Positions 8,302-63,337 are shown, counted from the stretch's first letter. The stretch is 64,000 bases of DNA from Gemmatales bacterium (GCA_041640595.1 JBEPZY010000001.1:288001-352000), one strand, 5' to 3'. The notes: generated from the sequence alone by a model not told the origin. Translations and numbers: made by a program.

Positions 8302-8411
8302 ACGCTGGATGGAACTTGTCGCGGATAAGCTCGGCGGCGCTGGAGCGGAAATCCATGACTCTGACCTCCACAGGGACGCTGGATGGAACTTTTCACGAAC
8401 AAGCTCGGCGG
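8302..8411. repeat. 36-bp direct repeat pair with 38-bp unique insert
   Basis: ACGCTGGATGGAACTTGTCGCGGATAAGCTCGGCGG (8302) / ACGCTGGATGGAACTTTTCACGAACAAGCTCGGCGG (8376). Confidence 0.85.
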
Positions 8412-8512
8412 GGCTGTCCAGCTCATGGTTAGGCATAATGCAATCCCGCAACAAACAAACAGCGAACCTGGCACGAAATAACGAAGTTACCTGCCTGGGT
8501 CGAGACAATTTT

Positions 8513-8978
8513 GCCCTGTCGAAAACACGGCTGGCTCTGGGCGAAAACTAGCGGCGAACGGCGTGGGCCAGTAACCACAGAGCCGCTTCATTGCCCAATC
8601 GCCACTTCCGCCGCGCCCTCAATTGCAGGTGACAAGGCATTGCCTGGCTGGGCCCAATCTCGTTGAGCGCCGGGCCGCAACTGGAACCGAGTGAACTGGC
8701 CGGGCTTTTCGGCTGCGAAGACGGGGGCAACACCTGCTGGGCTAATTCCAGGCCCATCCTGGTTACAGCTTAGAGCAAATGCGTCCTTGCGTCCGAAGCA
8801 ATTTTCTCCGCATCCGATTGCATCATGGTTACAGCCAAGAGCAAATGGGTTCCTTCCATGGCCGAGCATCGTAGCTCATCCCGCTTCGTGGTGGTTCCAT
8901 CAGAAGCTGTCGTGGTCGTGTCCCACGACCGAGCATCCTAAATCCTCTCGCCCGGCGCGAAGCTCTTTTCGACAGAGC
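8513..8978 (-). mobile_element. Internally deleted IS (MITE-like), copy A of the DDE (IS5/IS4-like) element also at 33255 and 40697
   Basis: Ends GCCCTGTCGAAAACA / TCTTTTCGACAGAGC; reverse complement matches both ends of 40697-41960; keeps only transposase N- and C-terminal bits (LELAQQVLPP, NEAAL). Confidence 0.85.
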
Positions 8979-9088
8979 AAGAGGGTTCCAGCCCCATGCC
9001 CGACCGGTACTGGTATAACTCCAATGCCGGAATAATGTTAGTCGTGGTGGGGAATATTTGCGGGCAGCGGGGACAGTGTCACTGGTCG

Positions 9089-9200
9089 GCCCTGATAACA
9101 GGGTGCTGCTTCCGGAATGATTCTACTCCGGTCCGGCGCCCTCCAATGGGCGCTGGAGGCTCCGCCCTGGTGACAGGATGCTGCCTCCTGATGATTCAAC
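9089..9200. repeat. ~37-bp direct repeat pair with 37-bp unique insert
   Basis: GCCCTGATAACAGGGTGCTGCTTCCGGAATGATTCTAC (9089) / GCCCTGGTGACAGGATGCTGCCTCCTGATGATTCAAC (9164). Confidence 0.75.
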
Positions 9201-9274
9201 GGCTGATCACCCGAACCTGGATGGAAAACGATCTGTTCAACACTGGCCAGCGCACGAACATGGAGTGAATCACC

Positions 9275-12200
9275 ATGATCCAGGTAGGCGACTGGGTGCG
9301 GATTGACCCGTATCCAGAAAAGGCGGAAGTCTTTGAAGTTCGGCAACAAGGTGGGCACGTGGTGCTGGGCATAATCTTCCTGGTCTCGCAAAAGGCGCAG
9401 CGAATGGTGTTCACGCCCGAGGAACTGGCGCAGAGAGTTCAGCGTCTGCCCAAACTCGGGGAGCGTTTCGAGCAAGACAGCTTGCGAACGCGTGAACCGT
9501 TCGTGCTTTTCCTGGAGGCGCTGCGCATGCGTCTGGCGTACACGTTTGATCCGCATTATGCGGTGAGCGTGACGCAGGTGGACCTGCTGCCCCATCAGGT
9601 GGACGCCGTCTATGGCCACATTCTGCCGCTGCCCCGCATTCGCTTCTTGTTGGCGGACGACCCGGGACTGGGCAAGACGATCATGGCGGGATTGGTGCTG
9701 AAGGAACTGAAGGTGCGCGGCGCAGTTCGTCGGACTCTGCTGGTGGTCCCTGCTCACTTGCAGGATCAATGGCAGCGGGAAATGCGCGACTGGTTCCGCG
9801 AGGACTTTGTCCCGCTGCGTCGGGAGCTATTGCAGAACCTGTACGCGACGGACTTTTTCGAGCGGCACGCTCAGGTGCTGGTGTCGTTGGATTTTGCCCG
9901 GCAGGTGGATGTCCGCGAGCTATTGGCGCGTCAGTCCTGGGACTTGCTGATTGTGGATGAAGCGCACAAACTGTCGGCGACCCGCTACGGGCAGAGAATT
10001 TTCAAGACGCAACGTTACCAGCTGGGCGAAGCCCTGGCCCCTCGGGCCACGCATCTGCTGTTGCTGACGGCCACGCCGCACAAGGGGGATGACGATGCGT
10101 ATTTCCTGCTGCTCAACCTGCTGGAGCCCCGTTTATTTGCAACGGCCGAGCATTTGAAGCAGGCAGCGCGCAGTGAGGGGCTTCCATTTGTACTGCGGCG
10201 TAGTAAGGAGCAGGTTACCGATCTGGAGGGACGCAAGCTGTTCCGCCGCCGCGAGGTGCAGAGCCTGGGTATCACCCAGAGCGAAGGGGAGAAGCAACTT
10301 TACGAAGCGGTCACCCAGTATGTCCGCCGCTGGTACGCTGCCGTTTCCGGCAAGACCGACCGGAAAAGTCGTAACGTGGCCCTGGCTCTGACGGTGCTGC
10401 AACGCCGACTTTCTTCCAGTCTGTTTGCTGTGCGGGAGTCGCTGCGTCGTCGCGGGGCCAAACTGCAGAATCTCCTGCAGGAATGGGAGCGTCGGCTCCA
10501 GGAGAACGAGTTGCCGGAATGGGACGAGGAGACCGAGCAGGACCTGGCCGAGATGACCTCCCAGGAGTGGGAAGGGTTTCAAGAGCGGCTGGAAGGAATC
10601 ACCGCTGCCCGGAACCCCGAGGAGTTGCGGGAGGAACTGGGCGAACTCAAGGAACTGCTTCGCCTGGCGCTGGAAGTGGAGAAAGCAGGTGAGGAAGCCA
10701 AAGTGCAGGAATTACGCCGCGTCATCGAGGAACGGTTGCGGCATCATCCCGACGAGAAGTTGCTGATTTTCACCGAATTCAAGGATACGCTGTCAGCGCT
10801 GGAGCAGAAAATCCGGAGCTGGGGCTTTCCTTGCGTGAGCATCCACGGGCAGATGTCGCTGGGGGACCGCATCGAAGCGGAGCGGCGTTTCCGGGACGAA
10901 GTGCAGGTGATGGTCGCCACCGATGCCGCCGGCGAGGGCATCAACCTGCAGTTCTGCCGACTCATGGTCAACTACGATCTCCCCTGGAACCCCAATCGGC
11001 TGGAACAGCGTATGGGACGCATTCATCGTTACGGACAGCAGCGGGATTGTTATGTCTTCAATCTGCTGTATCCCGAAACCCGCGAAGGCGAGGTGCTGCA
11101 GCGGCTCATGGAGAAACTGGAACGGATGCGAGAACGCCTGGGTGACAGCGTGTACGACGTGATCGGCACCTTGCTCGAAGGGGTGCGGCTGGAAGAACTC
11201 CTGATGCAGGCCATTGTCCAGGGCCCATCCGGCGAACTGGAGCGTGTCCTTGATGTGGACCTGGGGCAACGACTCGAGCAATACTGGCAAACGCTCCGGG
11301 AAAACGCCCTGGCTGGCCATTACATTGACCTTACCACCGTTCAGAAAAACGAGACGGACTCGCTCTTGCGTCGGCTGGTGCCCTGGGATGTCCAGCGCTT
11401 TACCCAACTGGCAGTGCCGACCGTGGGCGGGCAGATCAGCGAGGACCGTCGCCAACGCCAGGTCTTTCGCCTCAGCGTGCCCAGAGAGTTCCTCAAGCAA
11501 CACGGCCTGCAGAACGAGTCGTTCGCCCGTGGTCTGCGGATTGCCTTTCAGCGGGACGTGGCACGACGGGCCGATGCTGAGTTCTTCGCTCCAGGTCATC
11601 CCTTGCTCGAAGCCCTCACCGATCACTTCCTGAATAAGAACCGCCCTGTCCAGGCCATCCTGGTGGATGAGCAAGGGCGTAAGGGTACACTGTGGCTGTA
11701 TCGGGTTCGGCTGCAGGACGGTCGGAGCCAGGCGGTTCTGGAACGGTTACTGGCGTTGTTTCACGATCTGACCAGCGGCGAGATACGCGAAGTGGACCCC
11801 CGCATGGTCTGGGAGCTGGCCAGTCCGCCGGATCACCTCGACCTGCCCCCGAACCTGCCCAATCTCCTGGACGAAGCCAGTCAGCGAACTCGAGAGCACG
11901 TGCTCATTTGCCTGCAGGCGCTGCAACACGAAGCGCAACAGCGGCGGGAGCGGGAATGCACCATCAAGCACGACTGGCTGAACCGCTCCTACACGTATCT
12001 CATCGCCGAGTCCCAGGGCAAACTTATCGAGTACCACCAGCGCCAGCAAGCCGGCGAAGACATGGCCGTCGCTATCCGTCAGGAAGAGGAAAATCTCAAA
12101 GTCCTCCTACGCGAGAAGGACGAGCGTTTGAAAGAAATCGAAAAGGAGCGGCAAATCACGTTGCTGGAACCGGAGCTGGAAGCGGTCGCCCTCATCCTGC

Positions 12201-12616
12201 CCAAAGCCGCAGCCACTTCAGCTACGCCGGCCGAAGACGAAGAAATCAAGCGTCGGGTCGAAGAAGCCGGCATGCGGTACGTGATGGAACACGAACGCCA
12301 AGAGGGCCGTCAGCCCCAGGATGTCAGCCGTGAATTCCGCGGCTACGATATTGAGTCCCGGTCGGATTCGGAGGTCCGCTATATCGAGGTGAAATCGCTT
12401 GCGACAACCGGCCCCTGGGAGTTCACGGTCCACGAGTGGCAAGTCGCTGAGCGCCTGGGCGCCCGCTACTGGCTTTATGTGGTGGAGCATGCCCTCACCA
12501 AGCCCCGGTTGCGCCCCTACGATAATCCCGCCGCCCGCTTCAAGCCCAAGCTTGTCATGGGGGTAGTGAAGATGGTGGTGGAAGAATCGGAACAGGGGGG
12601 CGAAAATGACGCCTGA
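9275..12616 (+). CDS. SNF2-family helicase with C-terminal DUF3883-type nuclease domain (operon 1)
   Basis: LLADDPGLGKT, VDEAH, TATPH, NYDLPWNPNRLEQRMGRIHR; C-terminal GYDI..YIEVK..EW. Confidence 0.92.
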   Translation: MIQVGDWVRIDPYPEKAEVFEVRQQGGHVVLGIIFLVSQKAQRMVFTPEELAQRVQRLPKLGERFEQDSLRTREPFVLFLEALRMRLAYTFDPHYAVSVTQVDLLPHQVDAVYGHILPLPRIRFLLADDPGLGKTIMAGLVLKELKVRGAVRRTLLVVPAHLQDQWQREMRDWFREDFVPLRRELLQNLYATDFFERHAQVLVSLDFARQVDVRELLARQSWDLLIVDEAHKLSATRYGQRIFKTQRYQLGEALAPRATHLLLLTATPHKGDDDAYFLLLNLLEPRLFATAEHLKQAARSEGLPFVLRRSKEQVTDLEGRKLFRRREVQSLGITQSEGEKQLYEAVTQYVRRWYAAVSGKTDRKSRNVALALTVLQRRLSSSLFAVRESLRRRGAKLQNLLQEWERRLQENELPEWDEETEQDLAEMTSQEWEGFQERLEGITAARNPEELREELGELKELLRLALEVEKAGEEAKVQELRRVIEERLRHHPDEKLLIFTEFKDTLSALEQKIRSWGFPCVSIHGQMSLGDRIEAERRFRDEVQVMVATDAAGEGINLQFCRLMVNYDLPWNPNRLEQRMGRIHRYGQQRDCYVFNLLYPETREGEVLQRLMEKLERMRERLGDSVYDVIGTLLEGVRLEELLMQAIVQGPSGELERVLDVDLGQRLEQYWQTLRENALAGHYIDLTTVQKNETDSLLRRLVPWDVQRFTQLAVPTVGGQISEDRRQRQVFRLSVPREFLKQHGLQNESFARGLRIAFQRDVARRADAEFFAPGHPLLEALTDHFLNKNRPVQAILVDEQGRKGTLWLYRVRLQDGRSQAVLERLLALFHDLTSGEIREVDPRMVWELASPPDHLDLPPNLPNLLDEASQRTREHVLICLQALQHEAQQRRERECTIKHDWLNRSYTYLIAESQGKLIEYHQRQQAGEDMAVAIRQEEENLKVLLREKDERLKEIEKERQITLLEPELEAVALILPKAAATSATPAEDEEIKRRVEEAGMRYVMEHERQEGRQPQDVSREFRGYDIESRSDSEVRYIEVKSLATTGPWEFTVHEWQVAERLGARYWLYVVEHALTKPRLRPYDNPAARFKPKLVMGVVKMVVEESEQGGENDA

Positions 12617-15600
12617 AGATCGCGTGCGTTTTCTCATTGAAAGGGCGATGCCGCTGCGGGAGTTGTCGGCGGAGGCGCGGCGGGAGAAGGCGATTCGCCA
12701 CGGGCACATCTCCACGCTGCATGTCTGGTGGGCAAGGCGGCCGCTGGTGGTCGCCCGCGCTGCTGTGCTTGGCGCCCTGCTGACCGACGAAGCTGACATC
12801 GCCCCCGATTTCGTCCAGAATCTCTGCCGCTGGGAAGTGCATGATGGCGATGCCGGCGGGCGTTCTCTGCTGAATGAGGCACGGGCGCTTGTGCGCCAGC
12901 GTTTCGGCTCGACGCCCCCGAAAGTGCTGGACTCGTTTGCTGGCGGCGGATCGATCCCGCTGGAGGCTCTGCGGTTAGGTGCCCAGGCCTTCGCCGTCGA
13001 ATACAACCCCGTCGCCTACCTCATCTTGAAGGCGACCATTGAGTTCCCACAACGGTTCAGGCAAGGGATTAGGGATGAGGGGCGAGGGACGAAGGAGGAG
13101 ATGCATCATGAGCATTCGGTCATATCAGGACCTGGCAATTTGGAAAAAGGCGATGCAATTGGTTGTTCAAGTGTATCACCTGACCAGGCGCTTCCCTCGG
13201 GAGGAAATGCACGGTCTGACCAGCCAAATGCGCCGAGCAGCAGTTTCCATACCCACAAACATTGCGGAAGGATGGGGGCGAGGGAGCAGGAAGGAATACA
13301 TCCAATTTCTGCGGATTGCCAGAGGTTCACTTCTGGAACTGGAGACCCTTCTGGCTATCTCCAGAAACCTTCGTTACCTGAGCCAAGAGGATATGCAGGC
13401 AAGACTGGCTCTGGTGGAGGAAATCAGCCGCATGCTCAGTGGGTTGATTGCGAGCCTGAAGAGAGGCATGAGGGCTTAGGGGCAGGGGTCAAATCTTCTC
13501 CCTCATCCCTCACCCCTCACCCCTCGTCCCTCACCCCTGCCCCCTCCCCCCTCATCCCTCACCCCTCATCCCTCACCGACGCTGTTCTTTTTTGGGGCAA
13601 CTGGGTGCTTGAGCAAGCACGAAGGGAATTATCGCCCTTCTATCCCTCTGTCGCCCCTCATCCCTCGCCCCTCACCCCTCATCCCTCGCCCGAAACGCCC
13701 ATCGCCTACATCTGGAGCCGCACCATTCGATGTCCGAACCCCGATTGTGGCTCGGAAATTCCGCTGTTCCGGCAGTTCTGGCTTGCTAGGAAAGGGACGA
13801 GGGATAAGGGACGAGGGACGAGGGATAAGGGACGAGGGGCGAGGAAGGAGATTGCGTTAGCCCCTGTCGTTGATAGAGAGCGAAGGTGCGTCAATTTCAG
13901 AATCGTGCAGCGTCAAGGGGATTCTTGGCAGGTCATCGATGATTCCTCGGAGAGGGATAAGGGACGAGGGATTGGGGGCGAGGAACGAGGGACGAGGAAT
14001 GAGGGACGAGGAATGAGAGACGAGGCGCCTCTTTTATCCCCCAACCCTCACCCCTCACCCCTCAGCCCTCATCCCTCACCCCTCACCCCTCACCCCTCCA
14101 CCCTCATCCCTAACTCCTTTGACCCATCAAAGGGCACCGTCAGCCGCGGGCATGCCGTCTGCCTGGTCTGCAACACCAGCGTTCGGGACTCCTACGTGAA
14201 GGCGGAAGCCCAGGCCGAGCGCATGGGGCATCGCCTCGTCGCCGTCGTGACCACCCGCGGTCGTGGGCATGGCCGCAACTACCGCCTGGCCACCGAAGAA
14301 GACCTCGCCGCCTTCCGCAAGGCCGAGCAAGCCCTGCAAAACCTCCTGCAAACCCCATCCCCTTGGGCTTTCGGGCTCAGTTGGGTGCCCGAGGAGCCAT
14401 CGCCCGGAACTATCGGACAAGGACCTTCGCAGCGGCCGAGTTATGGGATGACTACCTGGGGTAAGTTCTTCAATCCCCGCCAGTTGCTGGCGCTGTGCAC
14501 CTTCGGCAAGTGGGTGCGGGAAGCCTATCGGCAAATCCTGCGGCAAACCGACGACCCCGACTTCGCCAAAGCCGTCGCAACGTATCTGGCGTTTGCGTTG
14601 GATAAACTTGCGAATTGGCTGTCTTGCGTATCCCGGTGGGAAGTAACCTGGGAGATGCCTAAAGAGGCGCTAACTGGTCACAGGCTCGCAATGGTGTTCG
14701 ATTATGCAGAGGGCAACCCGACAACCGGAGATGTTGCTTCCTGGCCAAAAGCGCTGGGGTACCTAGATAGAGGTCTCCGAGCTCTTTCTTGGATGAAAAA
14801 TGTTGGAGCCGTAGTAAAGGGCTCGGCGGCCAGTTTGCCCTTCCCCGACAAGCATTTTGATGCCGTCATCATAGACCCGCCGTATGCCGACAATGTGCCG
14901 TATGCCGACCTTTCGGATTTCTTCTATGTCTGGCTGCGTCGGACAGTGGGCGACCTTTACCCGGAAGCGTTCGGCACCGAACTGGTGCCCAAAGAGGAAG
15001 AGGCGGTGGTCAACCCGGCGCGGTTTGGCGGGGGCAAGAAAGGGGAGGCGGTCGCCCGCCGCCATTACCAGCGGCTGATGCAGAAATCGTTTGCGGAAAT
15101 CTACCGCGTGCTCCAACCCGATGGCATGGCGGTGGTGATGTTCACCCACCGTTCGACCGAGGCCTGGGAACGCCTGATGCTGAGCCTCCTGGAGGCGGGG
15201 TTGTACCCGACCGCTTCCTGGCCGGTGCACACGGAGATGGAGGCCTCGACGCATCAGCGCGGCAAAGGAGCGATCCAGAGCACGATCCTGATGGCGTGTC
15301 GCCGCCGTCCGGAGAATGCCGGGGTCGGCTGGTACTCTCAGGTACGGGACGACCTCGAGCGGGTAATCCGGGAGCGGCTGGAAGCGTTCTGGCGAGCGGG
15401 CATCCGCGGGGCGGATTTCTTCGTTTCGGCCATCGGGCCGGCCGTCGGGGTCTTCGGCAAGTATCGCAAGGTCATGCACCCGGACGGCCGGGAAGTCACC
15501 GTCAGCGATCTGCTGGACGAAGCCCGGTCGCTGGTAACCCGGTTTGCCCTGGAACAATTACGCCTGTCCACGCTGGATGCTCCGACGCGCTTTTATGTGC

Positions 15601-16130: not shown

Positions 16131-16159
16131 ACCCTGTCCACCGCGACACCCCAACACGA

Positions 16160-16385
16160 GCAATCACCGCGAAAAACCTTAGTGCTCCCTGGTGCCTGAG
16201 CGGTTATAATACCGCAACAGGAAGGTACGGAACGCACGAAGGAACACCAACGAAATATGCGGTATCCCTTTGTGTCTTCGTGCCCTGCTGGTTAAAACTC
16301 AATTACGAAGACACCAGGACGCGAAGAAACCTCGAGAAAACCCTTCGTGTTGCGTGGTGTCTTTGTGTCCTGGCGGTTACAACCC
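16160..16385. repeat. Degenerate intergenic inverted-repeat cluster
   Basis: Alternating CACGAAG/GAAGACAC and CTTYGTGTC...GGTTA tracts between the methylase and ATPase genes. Confidence 0.5.
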
Positions 16386-16406
16386 TTCAGCGACGGGGGA
16401 AGAAGC

Positions 16407-19031
16407 ATGGCGAGGCAGTCAGCTCTGCGGGTCTGGGAGGTGTGCGAACCGCATCGGGATGTGTTTTCGCGTGATCCGGACCCATCGCTGTTCGCTATCA
16501 GTCTGCACCACGTGATGCGAGGCTCGGCGGATCGGGATTACACTGACCCGGAGCGCTTCTTCGCCCGGACCTGCATGACGCGAGCCCTGTCGAACTTGTT
16601 GCAGCGAGTGCTCGGTCGGCTGGCGGGTCAGGGTCGCGGGGCACCGGTGTTGCGGCTGGAAACGCCATTCGGCGGCGGCAAAACCCACACCATGACAGCC
16701 CTCTGGCATATCGCCCGGTACCCGGAAGTCTGCAGCGAGCAGGAATCGCTCCGACCCATCCTGGAGGCGTTGAACCTGCGCAGCGTTCCGAACGATCTCC
16801 GCGTGGCCGTGCTCGATGGCCGGGGACTTGACGCCCGCGAACGACGTACCGACGACGGATTGACCGTCCGCACCCTGTGGGGCGAGCTGGCGTATCAGCT
16901 CGGCGGTCGGACGGGTTATGAGATGCTGGCCGATGCCGACCAGACGCGGACCTCCCCCGGCGGGGCCTTGCTCACCGAGTTGCTCCGCCGCTATCAACCC
17001 GCGCTCATCCTTATGGACGAAGTGCTCGACTACCTCATCAAGGCCCGGGCGGTGTCGGTGGGATCGAGCAATCTGATGGAACAGACCGGCACCTTCCTGG
17101 GAGAACTGACCTCAGCCGTCAGCGCGGTCCCCCAGAGTGCGCTGGTGCTAGCGTTGCCCGCCTCCTCGCTGGAAATCCCCGCCGAGAACCAGGAATCCGC
17201 CGAACGGCTCTTCCAGTACGCCAAGAAAGTGCTGGGACGAATGGAACTGGTGGAGACGCCCGTCGCTCAGGATGAAGTGTTCGAGGTGCTGCGCCGTCGC
17301 CTGTTTCAACGGGTCGCCGAAGAACGCGACCGCAAAAAAGCTGTCGAGGCTTTCCGCGCTTACTACGAAGAGTATGCCCGCTTTTTCCCCGATCGGTTGC
17401 GGTCGCCGGATTATCGCGAGCGCATGCTCCAGGCCTATCCCTTCCATCCCGAACTGGTGGATTTGCTCTATGAGCGGTGGGGTCCGCATCCGCAGTTTCA
17501 GCGTACCCGCGGAGCGTTGCGGCTGCTGGCGCTGGTGCTGCGGCGGATCTGGCAGCAACGACCGGGTTCGGCGCTGTTGATTCAGCCCCACCATATTGAT
17601 CTCCATGACCGCCATATTCGCGGCGAAGTGGTGCGGCTGCTGGACAGCAGTTGGGAAGCTATTGTCACGGGCGATGTCCTCCGACGGGCGGAAGAACTGG
17701 AACGGCAATTGGGCGGCGAGTACAGTCGCGAACAACTGGCCCGAGGAACTGCCAGTGCCGCTTTTGTGTACAGCATCTCCGCCGCCACCCGCGATGTCGG
17801 CGCCACCGAAGAGGAAATCCGCACCGCTTTGCTCCGCCCGTCGATCAACCCGGCGATGGTCTCCGAGGTGCTCGGACGCTTACGCGAACGACTCTGGTAT
17901 CTTCGTTACCGCGACCACCGCTATTTCTTCACAGCCAAACCGAACCTGAACAAGGTCATCCTGGACTTTGAGAACGAAGTTACCGACGAGCAGGTCGAGA
18001 AAGCCCTGCGGGAGCGTATCACCCAGTGCACTGGCAAGGCTGGCGAGGGGTTTCAACTGGTGATCGCTCCGGCAGAGCCCAAACTCGTTCCCGACCGGGC
18101 TCAACCGACTCTGGTTGTCCTCCCGCCGGATGTCCACCAGCCGCAGCAGTGGATGGAACAAGCGGTTCAGGCCGCCGAAAGCGGTATCCGCGTCAACAAA
18201 AACATGCTCATCTTCCTCGTGCCGGAACCGACGCAAATCTCCGCTTTGCGATCCGCCATTCGTCGCTGGCTCGCCCTCAAAGCCGTCTCCGACTCCCATT
18301 CCTTCAAAGAAATGGACAGCGATGACCGGGAACAGGTGAAGTTGCAACTCAAGGACAAGGAAGCGGAACTGGAGGCCCTCCTCCGCCGAACCTACCAGGA
18401 GATTTACCGTCCCAGCAACGGCAGTGTCAAGCGCATCACCGGCATCGGCCCCGAAACCATCAAGGCCAAAACACTCGCTGCGTTCGTCGAGGAAACGCTG
18501 AGAAATAAAGGCGAGCTGGTGGATAGCGTCGCCCCGGAGTATCTCAAAGATGTGCTGCGGATCGACCAGCAACAGCAGGTACCGCTGGCACAGGTGAGCA
18601 ACCTCTTCACCGGCGTAACCAGCCAACCGGTGCTCAGGAATCCCGAGGAGGCGGTTCGCCGGACCGTTCAGCAGGGCGTGCAGCAGGGGCTGTTCGCTGT
18701 GCGTGTCGGCGAGCAGGTTTACTCGCGTCAGGAAGTGCCCGATGACATCCTGAAACGCAAGGACGTGGTGCTCGTCCCGCCACCTGATGATAAGAAGCAA
18801 CCACCTCCGCCGCCGGCCCAGCCTAAGCCCCTCACCCTGCGGGTGCGAACCAGCGCCAGCGTGTTCTATCCGATTACGGTTGTGGCTAAGCAGTTGCAGC
18901 AGTTGAATGACGCGACGATTGTGCTCGAAGTCCGCGACCCGTCGGGCAAACTGTCCACCATGCAGGCGGAGATCGACAAACTCGTGCGCGACTACGGTTG
19001 CACCTGTGAGTGGGTCTCATCTACTGAGTGA
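16407..19031 (+). CDS. DUF499 family ATPase (operon 1)
   Basis: TPFGGGKTH Walker A, LILMDE Walker B, YPFHPEL, FQRTRG; ATG start at 16407 chosen. Confidence 0.9.
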   Translation: MARQSALRVWEVCEPHRDVFSRDPDPSLFAISLHHVMRGSADRDYTDPERFFARTCMTRALSNLLQRVLGRLAGQGRGAPVLRLETPFGGGKTHTMTALWHIARYPEVCSEQESLRPILEALNLRSVPNDLRVAVLDGRGLDARERRTDDGLTVRTLWGELAYQLGGRTGYEMLADADQTRTSPGGALLTELLRRYQPALILMDEVLDYLIKARAVSVGSSNLMEQTGTFLGELTSAVSAVPQSALVLALPASSLEIPAENQESAERLFQYAKKVLGRMELVETPVAQDEVFEVLRRRLFQRVAEERDRKKAVEAFRAYYEEYARFFPDRLRSPDYRERMLQAYPFHPELVDLLYERWGPHPQFQRTRGALRLLALVLRRIWQQRPGSALLIQPHHIDLHDRHIRGEVVRLLDSSWEAIVTGDVLRRAEELERQLGGEYSREQLARGTASAAFVYSISAATRDVGATEEEIRTALLRPSINPAMVSEVLGRLRERLWYLRYRDHRYFFTAKPNLNKVILDFENEVTDEQVEKALRERITQCTGKAGEGFQLVIAPAEPKLVPDRAQPTLVVLPPDVHQPQQWMEQAVQAAESGIRVNKNMLIFLVPEPTQISALRSAIRRWLALKAVSDSHSFKEMDSDDREQVKLQLKDKEAELEALLRRTYQEIYRPSNGSVKRITGIGPETIKAKTLAAFVEETLRNKGELVDSVAPEYLKDVLRIDQQQQVPLAQVSNLFTGVTSQPVLRNPEEAVRRTVQQGVQQGLFAVRVGEQVYSRQEVPDDILKRKDVVLVPPPDDKKQPPPPPAQPKPLTLRVRTSASVFYPITVVAKQLQQLNDATIVLEVRDPSGKLSTMQAEIDKLVRDYGCTCEWVSSTE

Positions 19032-19127
19032 CACGTCGTTCTCATCCCGCAGTGGCCTCGGTTGTCCCCATCGCAATCGCTCCACTCAGGCATCTGCTGA
19101 GTGACACACCGTTGTCAACCCGCAGTG
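19018..19127. repeat. 37-bp direct repeat pair with 36-bp unique insert over the ATPase stop codon
   Basis: CATCTACTGAGTGACACGTCGTTCTCATCCCGCAGTG (19018) / CATCTGCTGAGTGACACACCGTTGTCAACCCGCAGTG (19091), 32/37 identical. Confidence 0.9.
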
Positions 19128-19555
19128 AGTCTGATTCATCCCCAGTTTTTGATTGGGCCGGCTATTTCGCAGCACCTGACGAGAGAATGGTTTGTCGAAT
19201 GTCCTATTTTCCAGGGCCTGAGGCTCGCCCGTTCGCATCATACCAGCGTTCGGCCAAGGCGATCGGGTCTAACCGGGTGCCTGGCAGTCGGCAGCCTTTT
19301 CCAAAAACCGAAGATGCTCAAACAGATCTTGCATCTCCTGCGATCTGTGCGGTGCTTCGAGACAAGGAGACCTTTTCAAAAACCTGAAGAGGCTCTGCAT
19401 CTTCCAAGTGCCCCGAAAAACAGCGTCAGGATTGACGCCACCCCGACCGACACCGTGTCTTCCATGCTCCAAGTCTCCGCCTAAGAACAGACCATCCGAC
19501 GTAACCGTTATCATTCAGACGCCTTACCTCCAGCGGGGCTCCCGTCAAAACCGGG

Positions 19556-20041
19556 GATAAGTCAGAACTGGAGCCTTCAGGTAATCGCGGACGGGGTAGG
19601 GAACGCCGATAATGCGGATTTAGAGTCTGGGATAAGTCAGAACTGGGCCATCAGGCAATCGCGGACGCGGTGGGGAACGCCGATAGTGCGGATTTAGAGT
19701 CTGAGATAAGTCAGAACAGGGGCCTTCAGGTAATCGCGGGCGGGGTAGGGAACGCCGGTAGTGCGGATTTAGAGTCTGAGATAAGTCAGAACTGGGGCCT
19801 TCAGGTAATCGCGGACGCGGTGGGGAACGCCGATAGTGCGGATTTAGAGTCTGGGATAAGTCAGAACTGGGGCCATCAGGCAATCGCGGACGGGGTAGGG
19901 AACGCCGATAGTGCGGATTTGGAGTCTGAGATAAGTCAGAACTGGGGCCTTCAGGTAATCGCGGACGGGGTAGGGAACGCCGATAGTGCGGATTTAGAGT
20001 CTGAGAGAAGTCAGAACTGGGGCCTTCAGGTAATCGCGGAC
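19556..20041. repeat. 75-bp tandem repeat, ~6.5 copies
   Basis: Units GATAAGTCAGAACTGGGG... start at 19556, 19631, 19705, 19780, 19855, 19930, 20005. Confidence 0.95.
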
Positions 20042-20134: not shown

Positions 20135-20545
20135 ATCCTGCGAATTTCCCAGGAAAATGCGAGGTTGAGGATTCCGGCGCAGCAAAATCCGCAGCACTTA
20201 GCCGCAGTTTCGAGGAAGAAACCAAGCATAACTGTCCCACTGCCGCAAGCCGCAAGCCTGCCCAGCCGCAAGCGTCTGAACTTGGTAACCGATTGGCCGA
20301 GGCACTGCTGATTATCGCATCACTATCCGAAAGCGAACGCCAGTTATTGATCCGGTTGCTGGAAAGTTTCGGCAAAACCAAGCCATAACCGGCCGGACCC
20401 ATCCCTAGTTTCGGCTGAAAGCTCCGCTGGAACGCTAACTGGCTCTTTCTAACTTACTCATTATCTGCCGGACTTATCCCCAGTTTTGACTGAGCGTCCC
20501 CAGGACATAAGTCGTTGGGATGGCGTTTATTTCTCCGGATGGCCA

Positions 20546-20772
20546 GTTTTCGGGGCACATGGAGGACGGTAAACGACACTGCTTATAAGACACGCACGTG
20601 CGTTAAACCCGGTTTTTGGGGCACAGGGAGGGCAGTGAACTCAGGCTCCAGATAATAATCCTTGCCACGAGCGGACGTTTTTCGGGGTATGCGAAGGACG
20701 GCGAACTTGTTAAAGGTCCTGGTGGTCCGCCAACTTCATCTCATTTTTCGGGGTACATGGAGGACGGTGAAC
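20546..20772. CRISPR. Degenerate CRISPR-like mini-array, 4 repeats / 3 spacers, no cas genes in window
   Basis: 29-30-bp repeats ~GTTTTCGGGGYACATGGAGGACGGTGAAC at 20546, 20612, 20677, 20743; unique spacers of 37, 36 and 36 bp. Confidence 0.65.
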
Positions 20773-27393: not shown

Positions 27394-27481
27394 AGGTACG
27401 CAAAGCCAGATTCACCAGCTGGAAATGGTCGCCAGCGAAGTGCGACGGCGATACCGAGCAGAGACTCGATTGGAACAATAA
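27341..27481 (+). pseudogene. 46-aa ORF, possible truncated MNT N-terminus
   Basis: MKGPTSV...QLEMVASEVRRRYRAETRLEQ*; weak resemblance to the helix preceding the MNT GS motif; not in the ORF track. Confidence 0.35.
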
Positions 27482-27491
27482 AGGAGAGAGA

Positions 27492-32771: not shown

Positions 32772-33170
32772 TCATCCCCACTTTTGGGCCTCGGATAAAA
32801 GCGCTCCGAGAAGGGCATTAAGTGCTTCGGCGGCCCGCACTTGCATTCGCTCGATCCTCTGTCGCCCCATGAAAAACTCTTCTCTGCTCAGCAGACCACT
32901 AAGAACTTCCAAATCTTGCAGTTGCTCTGTCATCTGGCGCCCAATGAAAAACAGACTGTACGCTCCCTGGCGATTACTGCTGCACCACATCCCAGGCAAT
33001 TAGCGCTGCATGGCCACCAAAGCCGCTGCCAGCAAAATCCAATACGCCAACGCCAGAATCAACAGCATGCGATCCAACCAATCGGGGCACATCCGTCCCG
33101 AGTTACGTTAAGAAACACCAATGCAAGAATCAGTAGCAAGCGATTCAACCAGTTGGCACGAGTGATGATA
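32772..33170 (-). pseudogene. IS4-like transposase C-terminal remnant
   Basis: LDRMLLILALAYWIL..., PGMWCSSNR, terminal KWG*; broken by a stop and two duplication+insert events; family from recall. Confidence 0.55.
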
Positions 33171-33254: not shown

Positions 33255-33926
33255 TAGCCTGGAGGCCCCGGGAGGATACATCGCGTACAGCCAGGACTCG
33301 CAATCGGCATGTCCACGTGCTTGGGCAGGTGCACAGAGTGCGGTGGAATGACGCAAGTGCAAGTCGCAATCTGCTGGCCAAAGCGTTGGCTCAGGTATTT
33401 CCGCAGCCGTTGGTGGCCGATGCGGGCTATGATGCGGAGTGGGTGCACGAGTTTTGTCGGGAGCGATGGCGGGTGAACAGTTGGATACCGCTGGCGGTGC
33501 ATAGTGGGGATGGTCAGGTGCGAGGCCGCTGGCGTTCCCGAATGAGGGAGATGCCGAAGGTGTACCGTCAGCGTTGGCACGTGGAATCGTTCCTAAGTGG
33601 GCTGAACCGAACCACTGGATCGCAATTGACACGCTGTGTCCGATACGGCAAAGTCGGACGACGAAGGGCTGAACCGAACCACTAGATCGCAATTGACGGC
33701 GTGGCGGTAAAGTTAAGCCTGGCAACCAGGCGCTATACTGTCAGCCACAGTCGAGGACGTAGCGAGACAAGACGTTGAACAATGAAGCGGCTCTGCGCCA
33801 CAACCGACACTACGACGACGTCGAGCACCACGAGAAGACGTTGAACAATGAAGCGGCTCTGCGGGTGGTGGCTTACGCCATTCGCTGTTAGTTTGCGCCC
33901 ACACGCGACCATGTTTTCGGCAGAGC
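33255..33926 (+). mobile_element. IS remnant, copy C (3' part) of the DDE element
   Basis: LVADAGYD, YRQRWHVESF; right end TGTTTTCGGCAGAGC at 33912-33926; left boundary approximate. Confidence 0.8.
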
Positions 33927-40696: not shown

Positions 40697-41960
40697 GCTC
40701 TGTCGAAAACATCTTGGCGCGTGGGGCAGGAAGAGTTGGGATGCTCGGTCGTCGGACACGACCACGACAGCTCCCGATGGAACCGCCACGAAGTGGGATT
40801 AGCTACGATGCTCGGTCATAGATGGACCAATCATTGTCGGTCTTTGTTGCAACGGGTCCTCCTGCCCCTTTCGGGGGCACCCAGTCATGGAAGGACCAAT
40901 CATTGTCGGTCTTTGCTGTAACGTCCACACTCATTAGCTAAAATGCTCACCATGGAAGGAACCCATTTGCTCTTGGCTGTAACCAGGATACAACCGGATG
41001 CGGAGAAAATTGCGTCGGACGCAATGACGCATTTGCTCTAAGCTGTAACCAGGATCTAGCTTGATAGCTTCATACGGATCCTTGACTTCCGGCGACGCAT
41101 TTGCTCTAGGCTGTAACTAGGATACACCGCGTCCCTGGCGTGTGATTGTCGAAATGACAAGACGCATTTGCTCTAAGCTGTAATTAGGATGGCCCTGGAA
41201 TTAGCCCAGCAGGTGTTGCCCCCGTATTCGCACCCCAAAAGCCCACACCAATTCACCCAGCCGCAGTTGCTGGCCTGCTTGATTGTGAAAGCCTACCTGC
41301 GACAGAGCTATCGGGGCATCGTCGAACTGTTGGCCCTGTCGGATGGTCTGCGGCGGGTGCGTCCGCAGCCGTTGGTGGCCGACGCGGGCTATGGTGCGGA
41401 ATGCGTGCACGAGTTTTGTCGAGAGCGGTGGCGGGTGAACAGTTGGATACCGTGGCAGCGTCTGGACGGAAAGGGTAAGTGCAATCACCGCCTGCGGCTT
41501 CGGCCAACCAGGCACCCCGCTGGCAGTGTCTGGTCGGAATGGCCAAGTGCAATCACACCGTTGGAGGGCGTGGTCAATGACCCATGTTCCGAGCTGGCAG
41601 CGTCTGACCGAAAAGGGCAAGTGCGAGGCCGCTGGCGTTCCCAGATGGGAGATGCCCAAGGTGTACCGTCAGCGTTGGCACGTGGAATCGTTCCTAAGTG
41701 AGCTGAAGCGAACCACCGGCTCGCAATTGACGGCGCGGCGGTAATGTTAAGCTTGGCAACCAGGCGCTACACTGTCAGCCACAGTTGGGGGCGCGGCGGG
41801 GAAAAAACTGTAGGAGGATGGTCATGTGCAGCGCCGGTGCTATACTGTCAGCCACAGCTGAGGAGGTGGCGGGAGTGGACGTTGAACAATGAAGTGGCAT
41901 TGCGGGTGGCGGCCTACGCCGTTAGTTTGCGCCCACACGCAACTATGTTTTCGACAGAGC
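40697..41960 (+). mobile_element. Decayed IS, copy B, with both terminal inverted repeats
   Basis: Perfect 15-bp IR GCTCTGTCGAAAACA / TGTTTTCGACAGAGC; YSHPKSPHQFTQPQLLACL, ADAGY, QRWHVES; central deletion and several inserts. Confidence 0.88.
40815..41190. CRISPR. CRISPR-like repeat-spacer array at the transposase start of IS copy B
   Basis: 30-bp GACGCATTTGCTCTAAGCTGTAACCAGGAT-type repeats at 40960, 41026, 41094, 41161 (spacers 36, 38, 37 bp) plus a 39-bp pair at 40815/40884. Confidence 0.65.
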
Positions 41961-43053: not shown

Positions 43054-43070
43054 AACACAAGGAGAACATC

Positions 43071-52545: not shown

Positions 52546-52587
52546 GGATTAGAAATCCCTTGCTCTATCCAGTTGAGCTACGGGGGC
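52514..52587 (-). tRNA. tRNA-Arg (anticodon UCU), CCA not encoded
   Basis: GCCCCCG acceptor, TAGCTCAACTGGATAGAGCA D-arm, AGGGA-TT-TCT-AA-TCCCT anticodon arm, GCAGGTTCGAGTCCTGC T-arm. Confidence 0.96.
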
Positions 52588-53195
52588 AATGTGGATGCCT
52601 TCCATCGCGTAGTGCTTGCCCTCTGCGGAGCCCAGGCCGCCAAGACTCTCAGCCGGGACGATGTAGATGCTTCCCATCGCGTAGTACTTGCCGGCCGTCA
52701 GGCGCAAGTCAGCAAGACTCCCTGTCGAGAGGCAAATGCAGATGCATCCGGTCGGCTAATGATAAGCCCTCGCCAGGGGCAGGCCAGCAAGGCTCCCAGT
52801 CGGGGGCGGTGTAGATGTATCCGGTCGCCTAGTGCTTGTCTCCTGCCAAGCCAGCAAGACTCTCAGTCGAGAGGCAATGGAGATATATCCGGTTGCCTAA
52901 TGATAAGCCCTCGCCAGGGGCAGGCCAGCAAGGCTCCCAGTCGGGGGCGGTGTAGATGTATCCGGTCGCCTAGTGCTTGTCTCCTGCCAAGCCAGCAAGA
53001 CTCTCAGTCGAGAGGCAATGGAGATATATCCGGTTGCCTAATGATAAGCCCTCGCCAGGGGCAGGCCAGCAAGGCTCCCAGTCGGGGGCGGTATAGATGT
53101 ATCCGGTCGCCTGGTGCTTGTATCCTGCCAAGCCAAGTCAGGAAGACTGCCAGTCGAGAGGCAATGTAGATGCATCCGCTCGGCTAATGCTTGCT
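52588..53195. repeat. 141-bp tandem repeat x3 built of ~70-bp subunits, with degenerate subunits reaching the tRNA 5' end
   Basis: TAATGATAAGCCCTCGCC... at 52757, 52898, 53039; related CAAGACTC..GGCAATG.AGATG subunits upstream. Confidence 0.88.
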
Positions 53196-55556: not shown

Positions 55557-55585
55557 CTGCCCATATTTAGGAGCAGCTCAATAGA

Positions 55586-59634: not shown

Positions 59635-61020
59635 TCATCCGCGCGGTTCAAGGCGCTGTCGCCAGTATTCAAGCTGTTTTTCCACTTCCGCATAAGCAGT
59701 CGAGCCAGCGCTCCGAAAGGCAGCAAGGGCGTTTTTGACGCCTAGCACCTGGTACACACTGCTGCTCAGGCCAGGGCGTATTTCTTCCCAGGTTTCCGAC
59801 GGGAGTTCACTCAGAGTGCATCGCCGATGTTCACACTCCTGCACCAATCGGCCCACAATTTCGTGGGCTGTGCGCAGCGGAATCCCCTGTTTCACCAGAT
59901 GTTCCATGAGCGTCGTGGCGTCGAGAAAGCTGTTTTCCAGTCTCTCGGCAATGCGTTCCGGGCGTAGCCGACTGGCACGCACCAGAGGAATAGCCACCGT
60001 CAGGCAACCTTCCACGGTCTCGCTGGCATCGAAGACAGCCGGCTTATCTTCCTGGAGATCGCGGTTGTAAGCCAGTGGCAATGCTTTGAGCAACGTTAGC
60101 AGTTGCACCAATCGCCCGATCACACGTCCACATTTGCCACGAATCAGCTCCAGCACATCTGGATTTTTCTTATGCGGCATAATACTCGAACCGGTGCAGA
60201 AACGGTCCGGCAATTCCAGAAAACCAAATTCGGCAGTTGCCCAGAGAATCCATTCTTCTGCCCAGCCGCTCAAGTGCACCGCCAGGAGTGACAGGGCACT
60301 GACAAACTCTACCGCGAAATCACGGTCACTAACGGCGTCGAGGCTGTTGCGGCAAATCTCGGTAAACCCGAGTTTCCGGGCCACGCTGACACGGTCAATC
60401 GGCAACGAGGTCCCGGCCAGCGCAGCCGCACCGAGAGGAGAGATATTGACTCGTCTGCGGCAATCGGCCAGGCGGTCGCGATCCCGCTGCCACTTTTCGA
60501 TCCAGGCACAGAAATAGTGCCCTGCCAGGATCGGCTGGGCTCGCTGCAAATGGGTATAGCCGGGCAGAATCACATCAAACTGGGCTTCTGCCCGTTCCAG
60601 AAACGCACGCTGGAATTCGCTCAGCAGGGCATCTATCCGGTCAATGGCTTCGCGGATCCAGAGCCGCAGGTCGGTTGCCACCTGATCGTTTCGGCTGCGA
60701 GCAGTGTGCAGCTTCCGTCCCAAATCACCTAATCGCTCGATCAGCGCCCGTTCCACGTGGGTGTGAATGTCCTCCAGTTCCGCCCGCCAGGTAAATTGAC
60801 CACTGGCGATTTCATCCCGAATACTTGCCAGGGCTTGCACAATCTGCTCAGCTTCTTCAGCGGTGAGCAATCCCACTTCGGCCAGCATCTGGGCGTGGGC
60901 CTGACTGGCACGGATATCCTGCTCATACAGCCGCGCATCAAAGCTAATGGATTCCGTGAAGCGTTCAACAACGTGTTCCGTCGGCTCGCTAAATCTGCCA
61001 CCCCAGGTTTTACCGCTCAC
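59635..61020 (-). CDS. argH: Argininosuccinate lyase
   Basis: [44 protein letters not shown]; start uncertain. Confidence 0.96.
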
Positions 61021-61192
61021 AGTTGGCCTCGTTTCCTGTTTACTTGCCGGCTTATCGCGCAGAAGTTCGGTCGGACCGGATACCAATTACCGCAGGGCAC
61101 GGCGTGCATCCGAAGATTGCCCCTCCACGCGATTTTCGGGCGTGCCTTCGGGGACACAGGCAGTCCGATGATGCGTTCCCCTGCACCCGAAG

Positions 61193-62953
61193 CTACGCCA
61201 GCCCAAGCTCTTTCAATTGTTTTATATCCACCGGCGCAGGAGCACCGGTCATGAGGTCTTGGGCGCGTTGAGTCTTGGGGAAGGCGATGCAGTCGCGGAT
61301 ACTGTTCAAACCCGCCAGCAGCATCACCAGGCGGTCCAAACCCAGAGCGATGCCTCCGTGCGGCGGAGCTCCAAATCGCAGGGCATCTAACAAAAAGCCA
61401 AAGCGTTTGCGGGCCTGTTCCTCGTCCATGCCGATGCAACGAAAGACTCGCTGCTGGACATCCGGGCGATGGATACGGATACTGCCTCCGCCCAGTTCAT
61501 ATCCATTCACGACCAGGTCGTATGCTTTCGCCCGAACCGAGCCGGGCTCACTTTCCAATCGGTGCAAATCTTCGTCCATCGGACTGGTAAACGGATGATG
61601 GTTAGCAACCCAGCGGTTTTCTTCATCGTCCCAGACAAGCAATGGAAAGTCCACCACCCACGCCAGAGCAAACTGTCCTGGCTTCACCAGGCCGAGTTCA
61701 GCCGCCAGGTGGTTCCGCACTGCTGCCAGAGTATCGCAAACGACCTTCTCAGTGTCCGCAACAAAAAGCAGCAGATCGCCAGGCCGAGCCTGGAATCGCT
61801 CCCGCAAACTTTGCTGGACGGCCGACGGGAAAAACTTTTCGATCGGTGATGTAAACTTCTCCGCTTCGACCTTGAGCCAGGCCAGTCCCTTCGCACCATA
61901 CCGCCGGGCAAACTCTTCCAGTTCCTCCAGACGTTTCCGGGAGAATTTCTCCGCTGCTTGCGCTGCACATAAGCCGCGTACCACGCCACCTTGTTCGACG
62001 GCCGCTCGAAAGACGCGGAAATCGCTAGCCGGAGCCAGATCGGTCACGTCCACAATTTCCATGCCGAAGCGGAGGTCGGGTTTGTCGGTTCCGAATCGCC
62101 GCATGACTTCCGCGTACTTCAACCGCGGTAATGGCGTGGCCACGCTATATCCAAGCAATTCTCCGAACACACGAACCAGGAAACCTTCGATCACTTCCAT
62201 CACGTCGTCCATCTCTACAAAAGACATTTCCACGTCCAGTTGCGTAAACTCGGGCTGGCGGTCGGCGCGCAGGTCTTCGTCGCGCAGGCACCGTGCGATC
62301 TGATAATACCGATCCAGCCCCGCGACCATGAGAATCTGTTTGTAAAGCTGCGGCGATTGCGGTAGGGCATACCAGCAACCGCGATGCAATCGGCTGGGCA
62401 CCAGGTAATCACGTGCACCCTCCGGTGTGCTGCGGCCTAGCATCGGCGTCTCGACTTCCACAAAACCTCGCTCGTCGAAATAGCGATGCACCAGTTTATT
62501 GAGGCGATGACGCAACAACAGAACCTGCTGCATGGCCGGGCGACGCAAATCCAGATAGCGATAACGCAAACGAATTTCCTCGTTGACCGGCTCATTACCG
62601 CTGATCTCGAAAGGGGGAGTGTCAGCACGGTTGAGCACTTCTAAGGCTTGAGCGCGGACTTCGATGTCGCCTGTGGCCAGTTTCACATTACGCGTTCCTT
62701 CTGGTCGAGCGGTTACGGTTCCGGTAACGGCGATTACCCATTCCGCCCGCAATTCCCTAGCCTGGGCGTGCATCTCGGCACCCGCGGCCGGGTCAAACAC
62801 CACCTGCGTTATGCCATAACGGTCTCGCAGGTCAACAAACACCAATCCGCCGTGGTCGCGGTATGAGTGAACCCAGCCACAAAGTGTTACCGTCTTGCCA
62901 GCATCCCTCAGACGTAATTCGCCACAAGTGTGGGTTCGTCGCCAAGTTGCCAT
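61193..62953 (-). CDS. aspS: Aspartate--tRNA ligase
   Basis: RTHTCGEL, DLRDRYG, STPEGARDY, FTQLDVEMSF, GAPPHGGIALGLDR. Confidence 0.97.
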   Translation of the reverse strand: MATWRRTHTCGELRLRDAGKTVTLCGWVHSYRDHGGLVFVDLRDRYGITQVVFDPAAGAEMHAQARELRAEWVIAVTGTVTARPEGTRNVKLATGDIEVRAQALEVLNRADTPPFEISGNEPVNEEIRLRYRYLDLRRPAMQQVLLLRHRLNKLVHRYFDERGFVEVETPMLGRSTPEGARDYLVPSRLHRGCWYALPQSPQLYKQILMVAGLDRYYQIARCLRDEDLRADRQPEFTQLDVEMSFVEMDDVMEVIEGFLVRVFGELLGYSVATPLPRLKYAEVMRRFGTDKPDLRFGMEIVDVTDLAPASDFRVFRAAVEQGGVVRGLCAAQAAEKFSRKRLEELEEFARRYGAKGLAWLKVEAEKFTSPIEKFFPSAVQQSLRERFQARPGDLLLFVADTEKVVCDTLAAVRNHLAAELGLVKPGQFALAWVVDFPLLVWDDEENRWVANHHPFTSPMDEDLHRLESEPGSVRAKAYDLVVNGYELGGGSIRIHRPDVQQRVFRCIGMDEEQARKRFGFLLDALRFGAPPHGGIALGLDRLVMLLAGLNSIRDCIAFPKTQRAQDLMTGAPAPVDIKQLKELGLA

Positions 62954-63176
62954 AGTTCGCTTTCTCCTGTGTACGATTGTTTCGTTGCAGGCCCGATCCC
63001 TGGGGAAGATTGATAAGTTGATTGCTCCAAAATGGTCTGGCACATTGTGTAAGTCTCTTCAGGAGCCGGGCTATTGCTCCGCCAGCTTTGAACAAACTGG
63101 CCAAGCAACGCCTCATTATACACCGTTTGGAATACCAGGAACCCACATTACCACCCAGTCTAGGCAAGCATGGTGC

Positions 63177-63337
63177 GTTGCTATCCCGGTCAAAGTTAAC
63201 AGAAACTTAGCACCGGTTTGAGCCTCATGACTGTGGCTCGTGGTTACTGCACCGGTCAGGGTGTGGCGGGAACGGGAGCGAGGGAGGCAAAAAAAGCCCT
63301 GGCAAAGTTGCTATACCGATTAACGTGTGGCAGGAAC
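63177..63337. repeat. Three degenerate 30-31-bp GTT...AAC repeats with 36- and 33-bp spacers
   Basis: GTTGCTATCCCGGTCAAAGTTAACAGAAAC / GTTACTGCACCGGTCAGGGTGTGGCGGGAAC / GTTGCTATACCGATTAACGTGTGGCAGGAAC. Confidence 0.6.

Follow-up and report, generated by a model that had tools for sequence, protein, structure and literature searches.

Why should unrelated sequences scattered over a bacterial chromosome share one geometry, that is a short local duplication placed around a unique insert of the size of a CRISPR spacer? The question is raised by a 64,000-nt stretch of the genome of a Gemmatales bacterium (G000:C1:288001-352000, from here on "the window", with positions counted from its first letter), in which a first-pass annotation had proposed about 17 such sites and had ascribed them to one or two promiscuous integrases inserting spacers at ectopic places. 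We followed this proposal through the whole source genome (4.45 Mb in 42 contigs, 57.6% G+C). The sites, called scars in what follows, are best explained as off-target spacer integration ("neo-CRISPR") by the cell's own two Cas1-Cas2 modules, a reading to which we give a probability of about 0.88. Since the sizes of the scars match those of the two resident arrays, the enzymes that insert spacers have probably often hit ordinary DNA by mistake.

Two sharp periods in the genome

Offsets from 20 to 220 were scanned throughout the genome, and sharp peaks appeared at 65-68 and at 72-76, together with their multiples. Much of this unmasked signal is due to two large canonical CRISPR arrays; for the counts of pairs these arrays were masked, a score cut-off of at least 14 was used, and an order-3 Markov shuffle of the genome served as control. 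The masked genome contains 1402 pairs above the cut-off and the shuffled one 4, so that chance is excluded. Periods 65, 66, 67 and 68 gave 38, 95, 70 and 32 pairs and periods 72 to 76 gave 44, 73, 76, 60 and 22, with about 5 pairs at each of the neighbouring periods. The spectrum is not flat, and its maxima at 66 and at 73-74 lie where the first-pass annotation had predicted them.

The copied segment falls into the two length classes, of about 30 and about 37 nt, that had been described, correctly, for the window: in the first class its mode is 30 nt, with a drop beyond 31-32 nt, and in the second 37 nt, with a drop beyond 39 nt. In these two classes 470 pairs were detected, roughly 400 of them above the background, and in about 194 pairs the copies are full-length, measuring 28-33 nt in 99 of them and 34-40 nt in 95. 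BLAST clustering divides the 470 class pairs into about 440 unrelated sequence clusters, with 184 + 207 singletons; the common feature of the scars is geometry, not sequence. Each locus has its own repeat, in place of the one conserved repeat of a canonical array, and what is found is a native target of repeat length duplicated around an insert of spacer length, the pattern that off-target integration should leave. As the copies cease to match at 30 or 37 nt, what follows the second one does not reproduce the insert. The objection that the inserts could be decayed local tandem copies does not hold, given this end of the copied segment and the existence, described below, of empty paralogs without the insert.

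A third peak, at 87-94, was considered as part of the same phenomenon and rejected, since 190 of its 215 pairs form a single BLAST cluster, one dispersed hairpin family. Copies of this G+C-rich hairpin are usually about 92-93 nt apart and are dense on contigs C2 and C3; the copy in the window is a 92-nt tandem at 39326-39693. The family looks like a repetitive extragenic palindrome (REP) or a miniature inverted-repeat transposable element (MITE), unrelated to the CRISPR-sized scars.

Two resident arrays and their adaptation modules

The genome encodes exactly two Cas1 and two Cas2 homologues, each pair adjoining its array. Array A (C8:1-21088, continuing at C10:65225-66999) is built on the 30-nt repeat GTTTCAATCCCACCGTGGTTCGATTAGTAC with a period of 66, and contains 36 spacers of 35 nt, 153 of 36 nt, 95 of 37 nt and 25 of 38 nt. 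Array B (C1:359744-377942), which lies 7.7 kb beyond the end of the window, is built on the 37-nt repeat CTCGCAACTTAGACCCCAACCAATAGGGGATTGAAAC with a period of 74, and its spacers measure 35-39 nt, mostly 36-38 (81, 99 and 37 spacers). Next to array A, at C8:21.7-35.6 kb, module A encodes Cas2, Cas1b, Cas4, Cas3, Cas5b and Cas7 (type I-B), followed by Cmr genes; its cas2 occupies C8:22207-22422 and its cas1 C8:22440-23816. Module B consists of cas2 (C1:356211-356405), a reverse transcriptase gene (356904-358556) and cas1 (358589-359617), after which array B follows directly. The reverse transcriptase is group-II-intron-like and free-standing, between cas2 and cas1.

The search for cas1, cas2 and matching arrays, suggested together with the original proposal, therefore yielded two Cas1-Cas2 modules whose repeats and periods are 30 nt and 66, and 37 nt and 74. 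It also answers the caveat that no cas genes were seen, because cas2, the reverse transcriptase gene and cas1 of module B begin 4.2 kb beyond the end of the window. With modes of 30 and 37 nt and the same periods, the scars possess the ruler and the spread of insert lengths of the two resident arrays.

Scar sites in the window

Each pair of the earlier list was re-aligned at its offset, and an independent scan and Tandem Repeats Finder were also applied. Fourteen of the 17 sites are genuine direct-repeat pairs. The remaining three found no support as pairs on re-alignment: 33298/33364 had only 10/11 positions matching, 40317/40383 only 5/5, and 49164/49231 is an exact 13-mer (13/13) with nothing beyond it. 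The scan added two sites, 41766/41839 (d=73, 29/35) and the block 52583-53193. In total 17 detected pairs of the two classes fall in the window, out of 55 on contig C1, where the mean of the genome would predict 6.8 in 64 kb. No match to the Rfam CRISPR-DR families was found in the window. The sites are the following.

8299..8416: 37-class scar; copies 8299-8342 and 8373-8416 around an insert of about 30 nt, period 74, 38/44 matches
8755..8850: 30-class scar (8755/8821), period 66, 26/30 matches; inverted paralog of the mini-array at 40960, with its first spacer only
9086..9191: degenerate 37-class pair (9086/9161), period 75, 25/31 matches
19018..19127: 37-class scar (19018/19091), period 73, 32/37 matches
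19295..19395: degenerate pair (19295/19371), period 76, 21/25 matches
19556..20041: whole 75-nt unit repeated 6.5 times in tandem, 92% alike throughout (Tandem Repeats Finder)
20543..20772: 30-class mini-array; four diverged copies of about 32 nt, period 66, three unrelated 34-nt spacers
32840..32952: 37-class scar (32840/32915), period 75, 31/38 matches; empty paralogous allele at C3:426030-426349 (alignment #17)
33044..33151: 37-class pair (33044/33115), period 71, 30/37 matches
33599..33697: young 30-class scar (33599/33666), period 67, 31/32 matches; in a DDE transposase relic (DDE_Tnp_1, open reading frame (ORF) 33317-33685)
33766..33863: young 30-class scar (33766/33832), period 66, 31/32 matches; recurrent target near the end of an insertion sequence (IS)
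40815..40923: pair of 40-nt copies (40815/40884), period 69, 36/40 matches; an exact fit to neither ruler
40960..41190: mini-array with its own repeat; four 30-nt copies, steps of 66, 68 and 67, three unrelated spacers of 36, 38 and 37 nt
41453..41630: three 36-nt copies, steps of 68 and 74, spacers of 32 and 38 nt
41766..41873: 37-class scar (41766/41839), period 73, 29/35 matches; filled paralog with the same insert at C3:419213, empty paralog at C2:80241-80461
52583..53193: 3.4 repeats of a 141-nt unit that combines a 72-75 step with a 67 step
63177..63337: weak degenerate three-copy set, steps of 66 and 64, 23/31 matches for the better step (63243/63307); between aspS and the next ORF

The sequences of the sites had been described as unrelated, and this stands with one correction. 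The repeat and insert of 8755..8850 match window 40960-41029; since 8755/8821 has the repeat and the first spacer of the 40960 array, these two sites are not independent. The geometry of 40960-41190 is the canonical one of the 30 class, and its spacers are only 27-36% alike in pairwise comparison, while in the mini-array at 20543-20772 the middle step aligns poorly. Apart from the transposase relics, none of the confirmed pairs lies within an ORF matched by Pfam. At 19018/19091 the first copy covers the last 14 nt of a DUF499 gene (ORF 16347-19031), and because the duplication comprises the end of the gene together with the DNA downstream, the gene stays intact.

Empty alleles and recurrent targets

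For 24 of the 470 pairs a paralog is present that has a single copy of the target and no insert, and five empty-allele alignments are clean (#237, #17, which is the window site at 32840, #45, #449 and #128). The flanks of the scar at C3:417921 and of its empty counterpart, C8:38083-38520, are 98.7% identical. Orthologous empty sites were out of reach in genomes of the same genus, which even in genes share only about 75% identity.

Some targets were filled more than once. The IS-end target of 33766-33863 holds a different insert in C2:407699 and C3:561426, which gives two independent fillings, against eight empty paralogs, two of which are in the window (~8593 and 41878). The second recurrent target lies within transposase coding sequence, at a GRSRGG motif; C1:1188417 and C10:64668 carry different inserts there, and C1:12146-12487 is an empty form. 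Such repeated use of one site points to a target preference, and the finding of inserts within transposase coding sequence agrees with the earlier suggestion that integration was breaking transposases.

A shorter form of one window site was also met outside this genome. In the metagenome run X2 a contig joins 33617 to 33685, so that 67 nt are skipped, with a depth of 51, and the same run carries the filled form of 33599/33666 without differences, at a depth of 63; the shorter form is either the ancestral empty allele or the result of a collapse between the copies. Joints of the same type from 33545 to 33837 and from 33707 to 33832 were set aside, their sides being only 23-25 nt long.

Target borders

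Copies of the 30 class begin with G in 49/94 cases and end with C in 48/94, over a background of 29% (binomial p about 2e-6 and 4e-6), and in the control, made of pairs at other periods, the same counts are 33/115 and 30/115. The canonical repeat of array A also begins with G and ends with C. Apart from the borders, only weak signals were found, at positions 12 and 19 of the 30-class targets; in other respects the targets resemble random DNA. Resemblance of the targets to the canonical repeats was tried as a further feature and discarded: its mean is only a little above random (12.1 vs 11.4 matches of 30, and 14.1 vs 13.8 of 37), and the difference is due to a few orphan canonical repeats.

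Origin of the inserts

The set of inserts of at least 25 nt comprises 463 sequences, of which 47 have a match elsewhere in the genome, mostly in paralogous filled loci, and 416 have none. Among 50,697 records of named phages, no match was obtained for the inserts of two window loci. At C2:174386, non-canonical 32-nt copies enclose an insert that coincides over 31 nt, with a single mismatch, with the canonical spacer C8:12371-12406; as its ends are offset by 2 nt from those of the spacer, it represents a separate capture from the same source. A second case is the insert shared by the two paralogous loci C2:407699 and C3:561426, which matches contig C15 at 93% over 30 nt. Of the 587 canonical spacers, 31 match this contig (9.6 kb, C15:1-9585, L005) at E<=1e-3, nearly all of them from the cas-proximal end of array A; the small orphan array at C3:328836, whose repeats are near-canonical, matches it as well. 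Most protospacers on C15 are followed 3' by HGG, with G at +2 in 35/39 and at +3 in 32/39 of the array-A matches obtained in a looser search.

Contig C15 probably represents a virus or plasmid of this host, so far unclassified. Its content by Pfam is a matrixin-like peptidase and a sub-threshold match to protein-primed polymerase B; no PHROGs matches were obtained for its 9 ORFs, nor an IMG/VR relative for the one ORF searched. The comparison of inserts with invaders that the first-pass annotation had called for linked a few inserts to the invader pool of the canonical array, most of the set having no traceable source; the common protospacer-adjacent motif (PAM) that was to be looked for is taken up below.

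The 23S rRNA gene is matched by two inserts, only one of which belongs to the 37 class, and uptake of RNA by the module associated with the reverse transcriptase is possible from these matches. As a separate observation, this gene (C5:166219-170885; L074 3220-7886) measures 4667 nt against a model of 2925 positions, so that about 1.7 kb of extra sequence must lie inside it, for example an intron or an intervening sequence.

Age of the scars, and their probable growth and amplification

The copies of a pair diverge on average by about 12-13%, ranging from identical to about 20%, and the flanks of paralogs by 11%; identical copies occur in 61 of the 470 pairs, many of them short. Since the copies are as diverged as the paralog flanks, integration has been going on for a long time. 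Error-prone duplication was considered and dropped, because over 13 loci with flanks at least 85% identical the copies differ by 11-13% and the flanks by 11%. One alignment, #237 (C3:417921-418034 vs C8:38083-38520), has about 7 differences in 78 nt of copies and 2 in 160 nt of flank; this excess was not recovered across the 13 loci.

The idea that integration seeds new arrays is supported by the mini-arrays with three unrelated spacers each, at 40960-41190 and 20543-20772, the second similar to the first but older. The array at 40960-41190 has two spacers that its inverted paralog 8755-8850 is without: either the array acquired them at one end once the duplication had occurred, or they disappeared from the paralog. 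Amplification of a different kind is suggested by the two blocks of whole units. The one at 19556-20041 would be a single 37-class unit multiplied by unequal recombination, and the one at 52583-53193 may be a two-unit scar that was amplified later, likely by the same route.

Relatives

Four related genomes, one per species, were sampled with the same type of masked scan, the samples being of 308-400 kb for G003, G002 and G015. G003, from the same genus, has both types of cas1, and its arrays are built on repeats of 30 and 37 nt. Of the 13 pairs found in 308 kb, 12 are at periods 66-67 or 72-74; three of these belong to canonical arrays, and the others are non-canonical scars (4 + 5, by class). 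G002, also of the same genus, possesses only the 37-class cas1, and in 393 kb it has 4-5 non-canonical pairs of the 37 class and zero of the 30 class. G004, of the same family, has one cas1 and one clear scar (period 75, 38-nt copy). G015, of the same order, has no cas1, and its 24 pairs in 400 kb have no period clustering. The classes of scars track the cas1 types present in the relatives; because these genomes are related, and so not independent, and the samples are small, this agreement is support rather than proof.

How the scars may arise, and other explanations

The course of events that we propose is the following. Cas1-Cas2 would cut ordinary DNA with a stagger as long as the repeat (30 bp in the type I-B module, 37 bp in the one associated with the reverse transcriptase); a spacer-sized fragment of 35-39 nt would be joined between the cuts, and gap filling would copy the native target to both sides of the insert. 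Scars would persist in dispensable DNA, that is in IS relics, in intergenic DNA and just beyond gene ends. Some would be hit again and become mini-arrays with several unrelated spacers, and others may be amplified as whole units by unequal recombination, may collapse, or may be copied along with their IS.

Several points weigh against this reading. Integration was never directly observed, and most scars are old (copies differ by about 13%, flanks by 11%), with no tie to the present proteins. About 70 of the 470 class pairs are expected from the background of neighbouring periods, and neither ruler fits two window sites, 40815 (40-nt copies, period 69) and 41453 (36-nt copies, period 68). A second process is needed for the whole-unit tandems (19556-20041 and 52583-53193), and the shorter form in X2, known from one contig with 60 nt on its shorter side, may be a recombinational collapse. 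In the 37 class the border bias is weak (33/74 and 31/74). Any traceable origin was found for only about 6 of the 463 inserts, and the ectopic insert that matches C15 has no flanking HGG in either orientation there, so that the PAM test failed in the one available case. Finally, with 10.6 scars per 100 kb the genome exceeds the density of G003 and G002 by a factor of 4-9, for which this reading does not account.

The explanation that competes best with off-target integration, improbable as we consider it, is that the loci are minisatellites, or variable-number tandem repeats (VNTRs), in which units of about 66 and 74 bp arise by slippage or unequal crossing-over and the inserts are decayed neighbouring copies. 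It accounts for the true whole-unit tandems at 19556-20041 (75 nt x 6.5, 92% alike) and 52583-53193, for the 32 pairs at periods 72-75 that match over more than 90 nt, and for the whole steps gained or lost between paralogs and in one metagenome. However, head-to-tail repetition of whole units was found only at those two sites and, over the genome, in a minority of the loci; in most pairs the match is over at 30 or 37 nt, and past the second copy the sequence is unlike the insert. Empty paralogs are entirely without the insert, which already contradicts this explanation for the pairs concerned. Slippage also gives no reason why two periods should equal the CRISPR geometry or why the classes should track cas1, and some inserts match the element targeted by the canonical array.

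Slightly less probable still is the action of another mobile agent, such as very short insertion elements, a casposase, or a tyrosine or serine recombinase making duplications of 30 and 37 bp. A target duplication around an insert is formally the pattern of transposition, and the window does contain an integrase gene (51034-52545) and IS relics; the inserts, however, have neither a common sequence nor terminal repeats, and 416 of the 463 are unmatched in the genome. The only two Cas1 homologues of the genome adjoin arrays, and the two classes reproduce both the repeat lengths and the spacer-length spread of those canonical arrays; transposases are not known to produce target duplications of 30 or 37 bp. 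That the pairs could be diverged remnants or transposed fragments of old canonical arrays, as a few loci with near-canonical repeats might suggest (for example C3:328836, with its spacer matching C15), is equally improbable, since only about 5/161 targets of the 30 class and about 2-5/143 of the 37 class resemble the canonical repeat beyond random, copies are alike within a pair and unrelated between pairs, and the empty alleles, which already contradict this origin for the bulk of the pairs, reveal the "repeat" as native local sequence, including transposase coding sequence.

Off-target integration by the two resident modules is therefore the reading that we retain, and it can be extended in two directions. 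The lineage might represent a natural fossil record of the birth of CRISPR arrays, in which ordinary sequence becomes new repeats, some of them hit repeatedly at one end, as 40960-41190 would have been when it gained the two spacers absent at 8755, and a few of these neo-arrays may be, or may become, transcribed and used; we regard this as doubtful, and if true it would be a route to new repeat families. In a bolder variant, the recurrent hits in transposase genes and IS ends, of which there are two independent cases, would reflect selection for the silencing of IS.

Genes around the scars

Among the long ORFs of the window, ORF calls and Pfam recognised housekeeping genes and two sets of defence-like genes that are paralogous to each other, besides genes of dynamin-like and Hsp70-like type and those of a WD40 kinase and of a TPR protein. 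A planctomycete is indicated by a DUF1559 protein that has a methylation motif at its N-terminus, and the metagenome runs that contain the stretch are labelled as hot springs or microbial mats. The repeat pairs occupy the gaps between genes, at 8.0-9.3, 19.0-21.6, 32.5-35.0, 39.2-42.0, 52.5-53.4 and 63.0-63.5 kb, and in two of these gaps Pfam identified transposase fragments, DDE_Tnp_1 at 33317-33685 and DUF4096 at 39942-40295.

The defence-like sets are tandem paralogous groups of three genes, at window 9275-19031 and 21634-32545, each encoding a helicase (SNF2/NOV_C), a methyltransferase (DUF1156) and a DUF499 protein. The DUF1156 methylase of the second set is split (ORFs 25702-27393 and 28623-29903). 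In the first, a 7-nt unit (CCCTCAC or its complement) recurs in runs of both orientations at 13500-14111, within the ORF of the DUF1156 methylase (1174 amino acids), whose frame is uninterrupted. Farther on, the tyrosine integrase gene at 51034-52545 overlaps a minus-strand tRNA gene (52514-52587), after which comes the 141-nt tandem block; this arrangement, at 51034-52587, suggests the junction of an integrative element.

Comparison with known systems

Most of what is known about off-target integration comes from E. coli strains that over-express the proteins and from assays in the test tube, and the scars bear on how much it matters in nature and on what CRISPR adaptation costs the host genome. 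In the present genome the ages, target borders, hot spots and later fates of about 400 scars can be read, which provides a natural data set on the choice of targets by the integrase, including that of a module associated with a reverse transcriptase. The same scars allow the mutational load that adaptation imposes to be gauged, insertions being retained only where the DNA is dispensable, and they may illustrate a concrete route for the rise of new arrays with new repeats. On the practical side, such loci will be mislabelled by array finders and repeat annotators. Natural scars at such a scale were not found in our literature search, in which subscription journals were thinly covered, so that this absence is weak evidence. 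The mechanism was already known from the laboratory, and its natural scale appears to be new, as do the participation of two modules, one of them associated with a reverse transcriptase, the recurrent targets, and the mini-arrays.

The closest precedent is the work of Nivala, Shipman and Church, who reportedly (in Nat Microbiol, 2018) obtained neo-CRISPR loci by non-canonical integration in E. coli over-producing the type I-E Cas1-Cas2. Those loci are reported to have in common with the scars a spacer-sized insert between native copies of repeat length, outside arrays, and the capacity to grow into small arrays. Unlike that induced case, the present one is natural, with about 400 scars in one wild genome and two modules (I-B with Cas4, and one associated with a reverse transcriptase); the scars vary in age, some were later amplified, and congeners are alike. 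A preprint citing the 2018 work calls the natural evidence, from two other species, only "circumstantial" (10.1101/148544), and a review states that non-canonical integration events are rarer than on-target ones.

A second comparison concerns Pyrococcus furiosus, for which a study reports that Cas1-Cas2 in vitro performs off-target full-site integration at G/C positions 30 bp apart (PMC6698737). Both the spacing of one repeat length (30 bp) and the G/C borders recur in the 30-class scars. Unlike that plasmid assay in the test tube, the products here are fixed in a chromosome, and the internal positions conserved in P. furiosus were not recovered here beyond the weak signals at 12 and 19. In Streptococcus thermophilus and S. 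mutans ectopic acquisition of spacers within arrays is reported (PMC7999890, PMC8265633). There, too, the leader-proximal repeat is missed by the integrase; unlike the present case, the repeat used is reportedly one of the canonical array, whereas here unrelated genomic DNA is targeted.

Finally, the gain and loss of whole steps at 19556-20041 and 52583-53193 resembles that of the intergenic VNTRs of bacteria, from which the scars differ in that most pairs repeat only a 30- or 37-nt segment around unique inserts.

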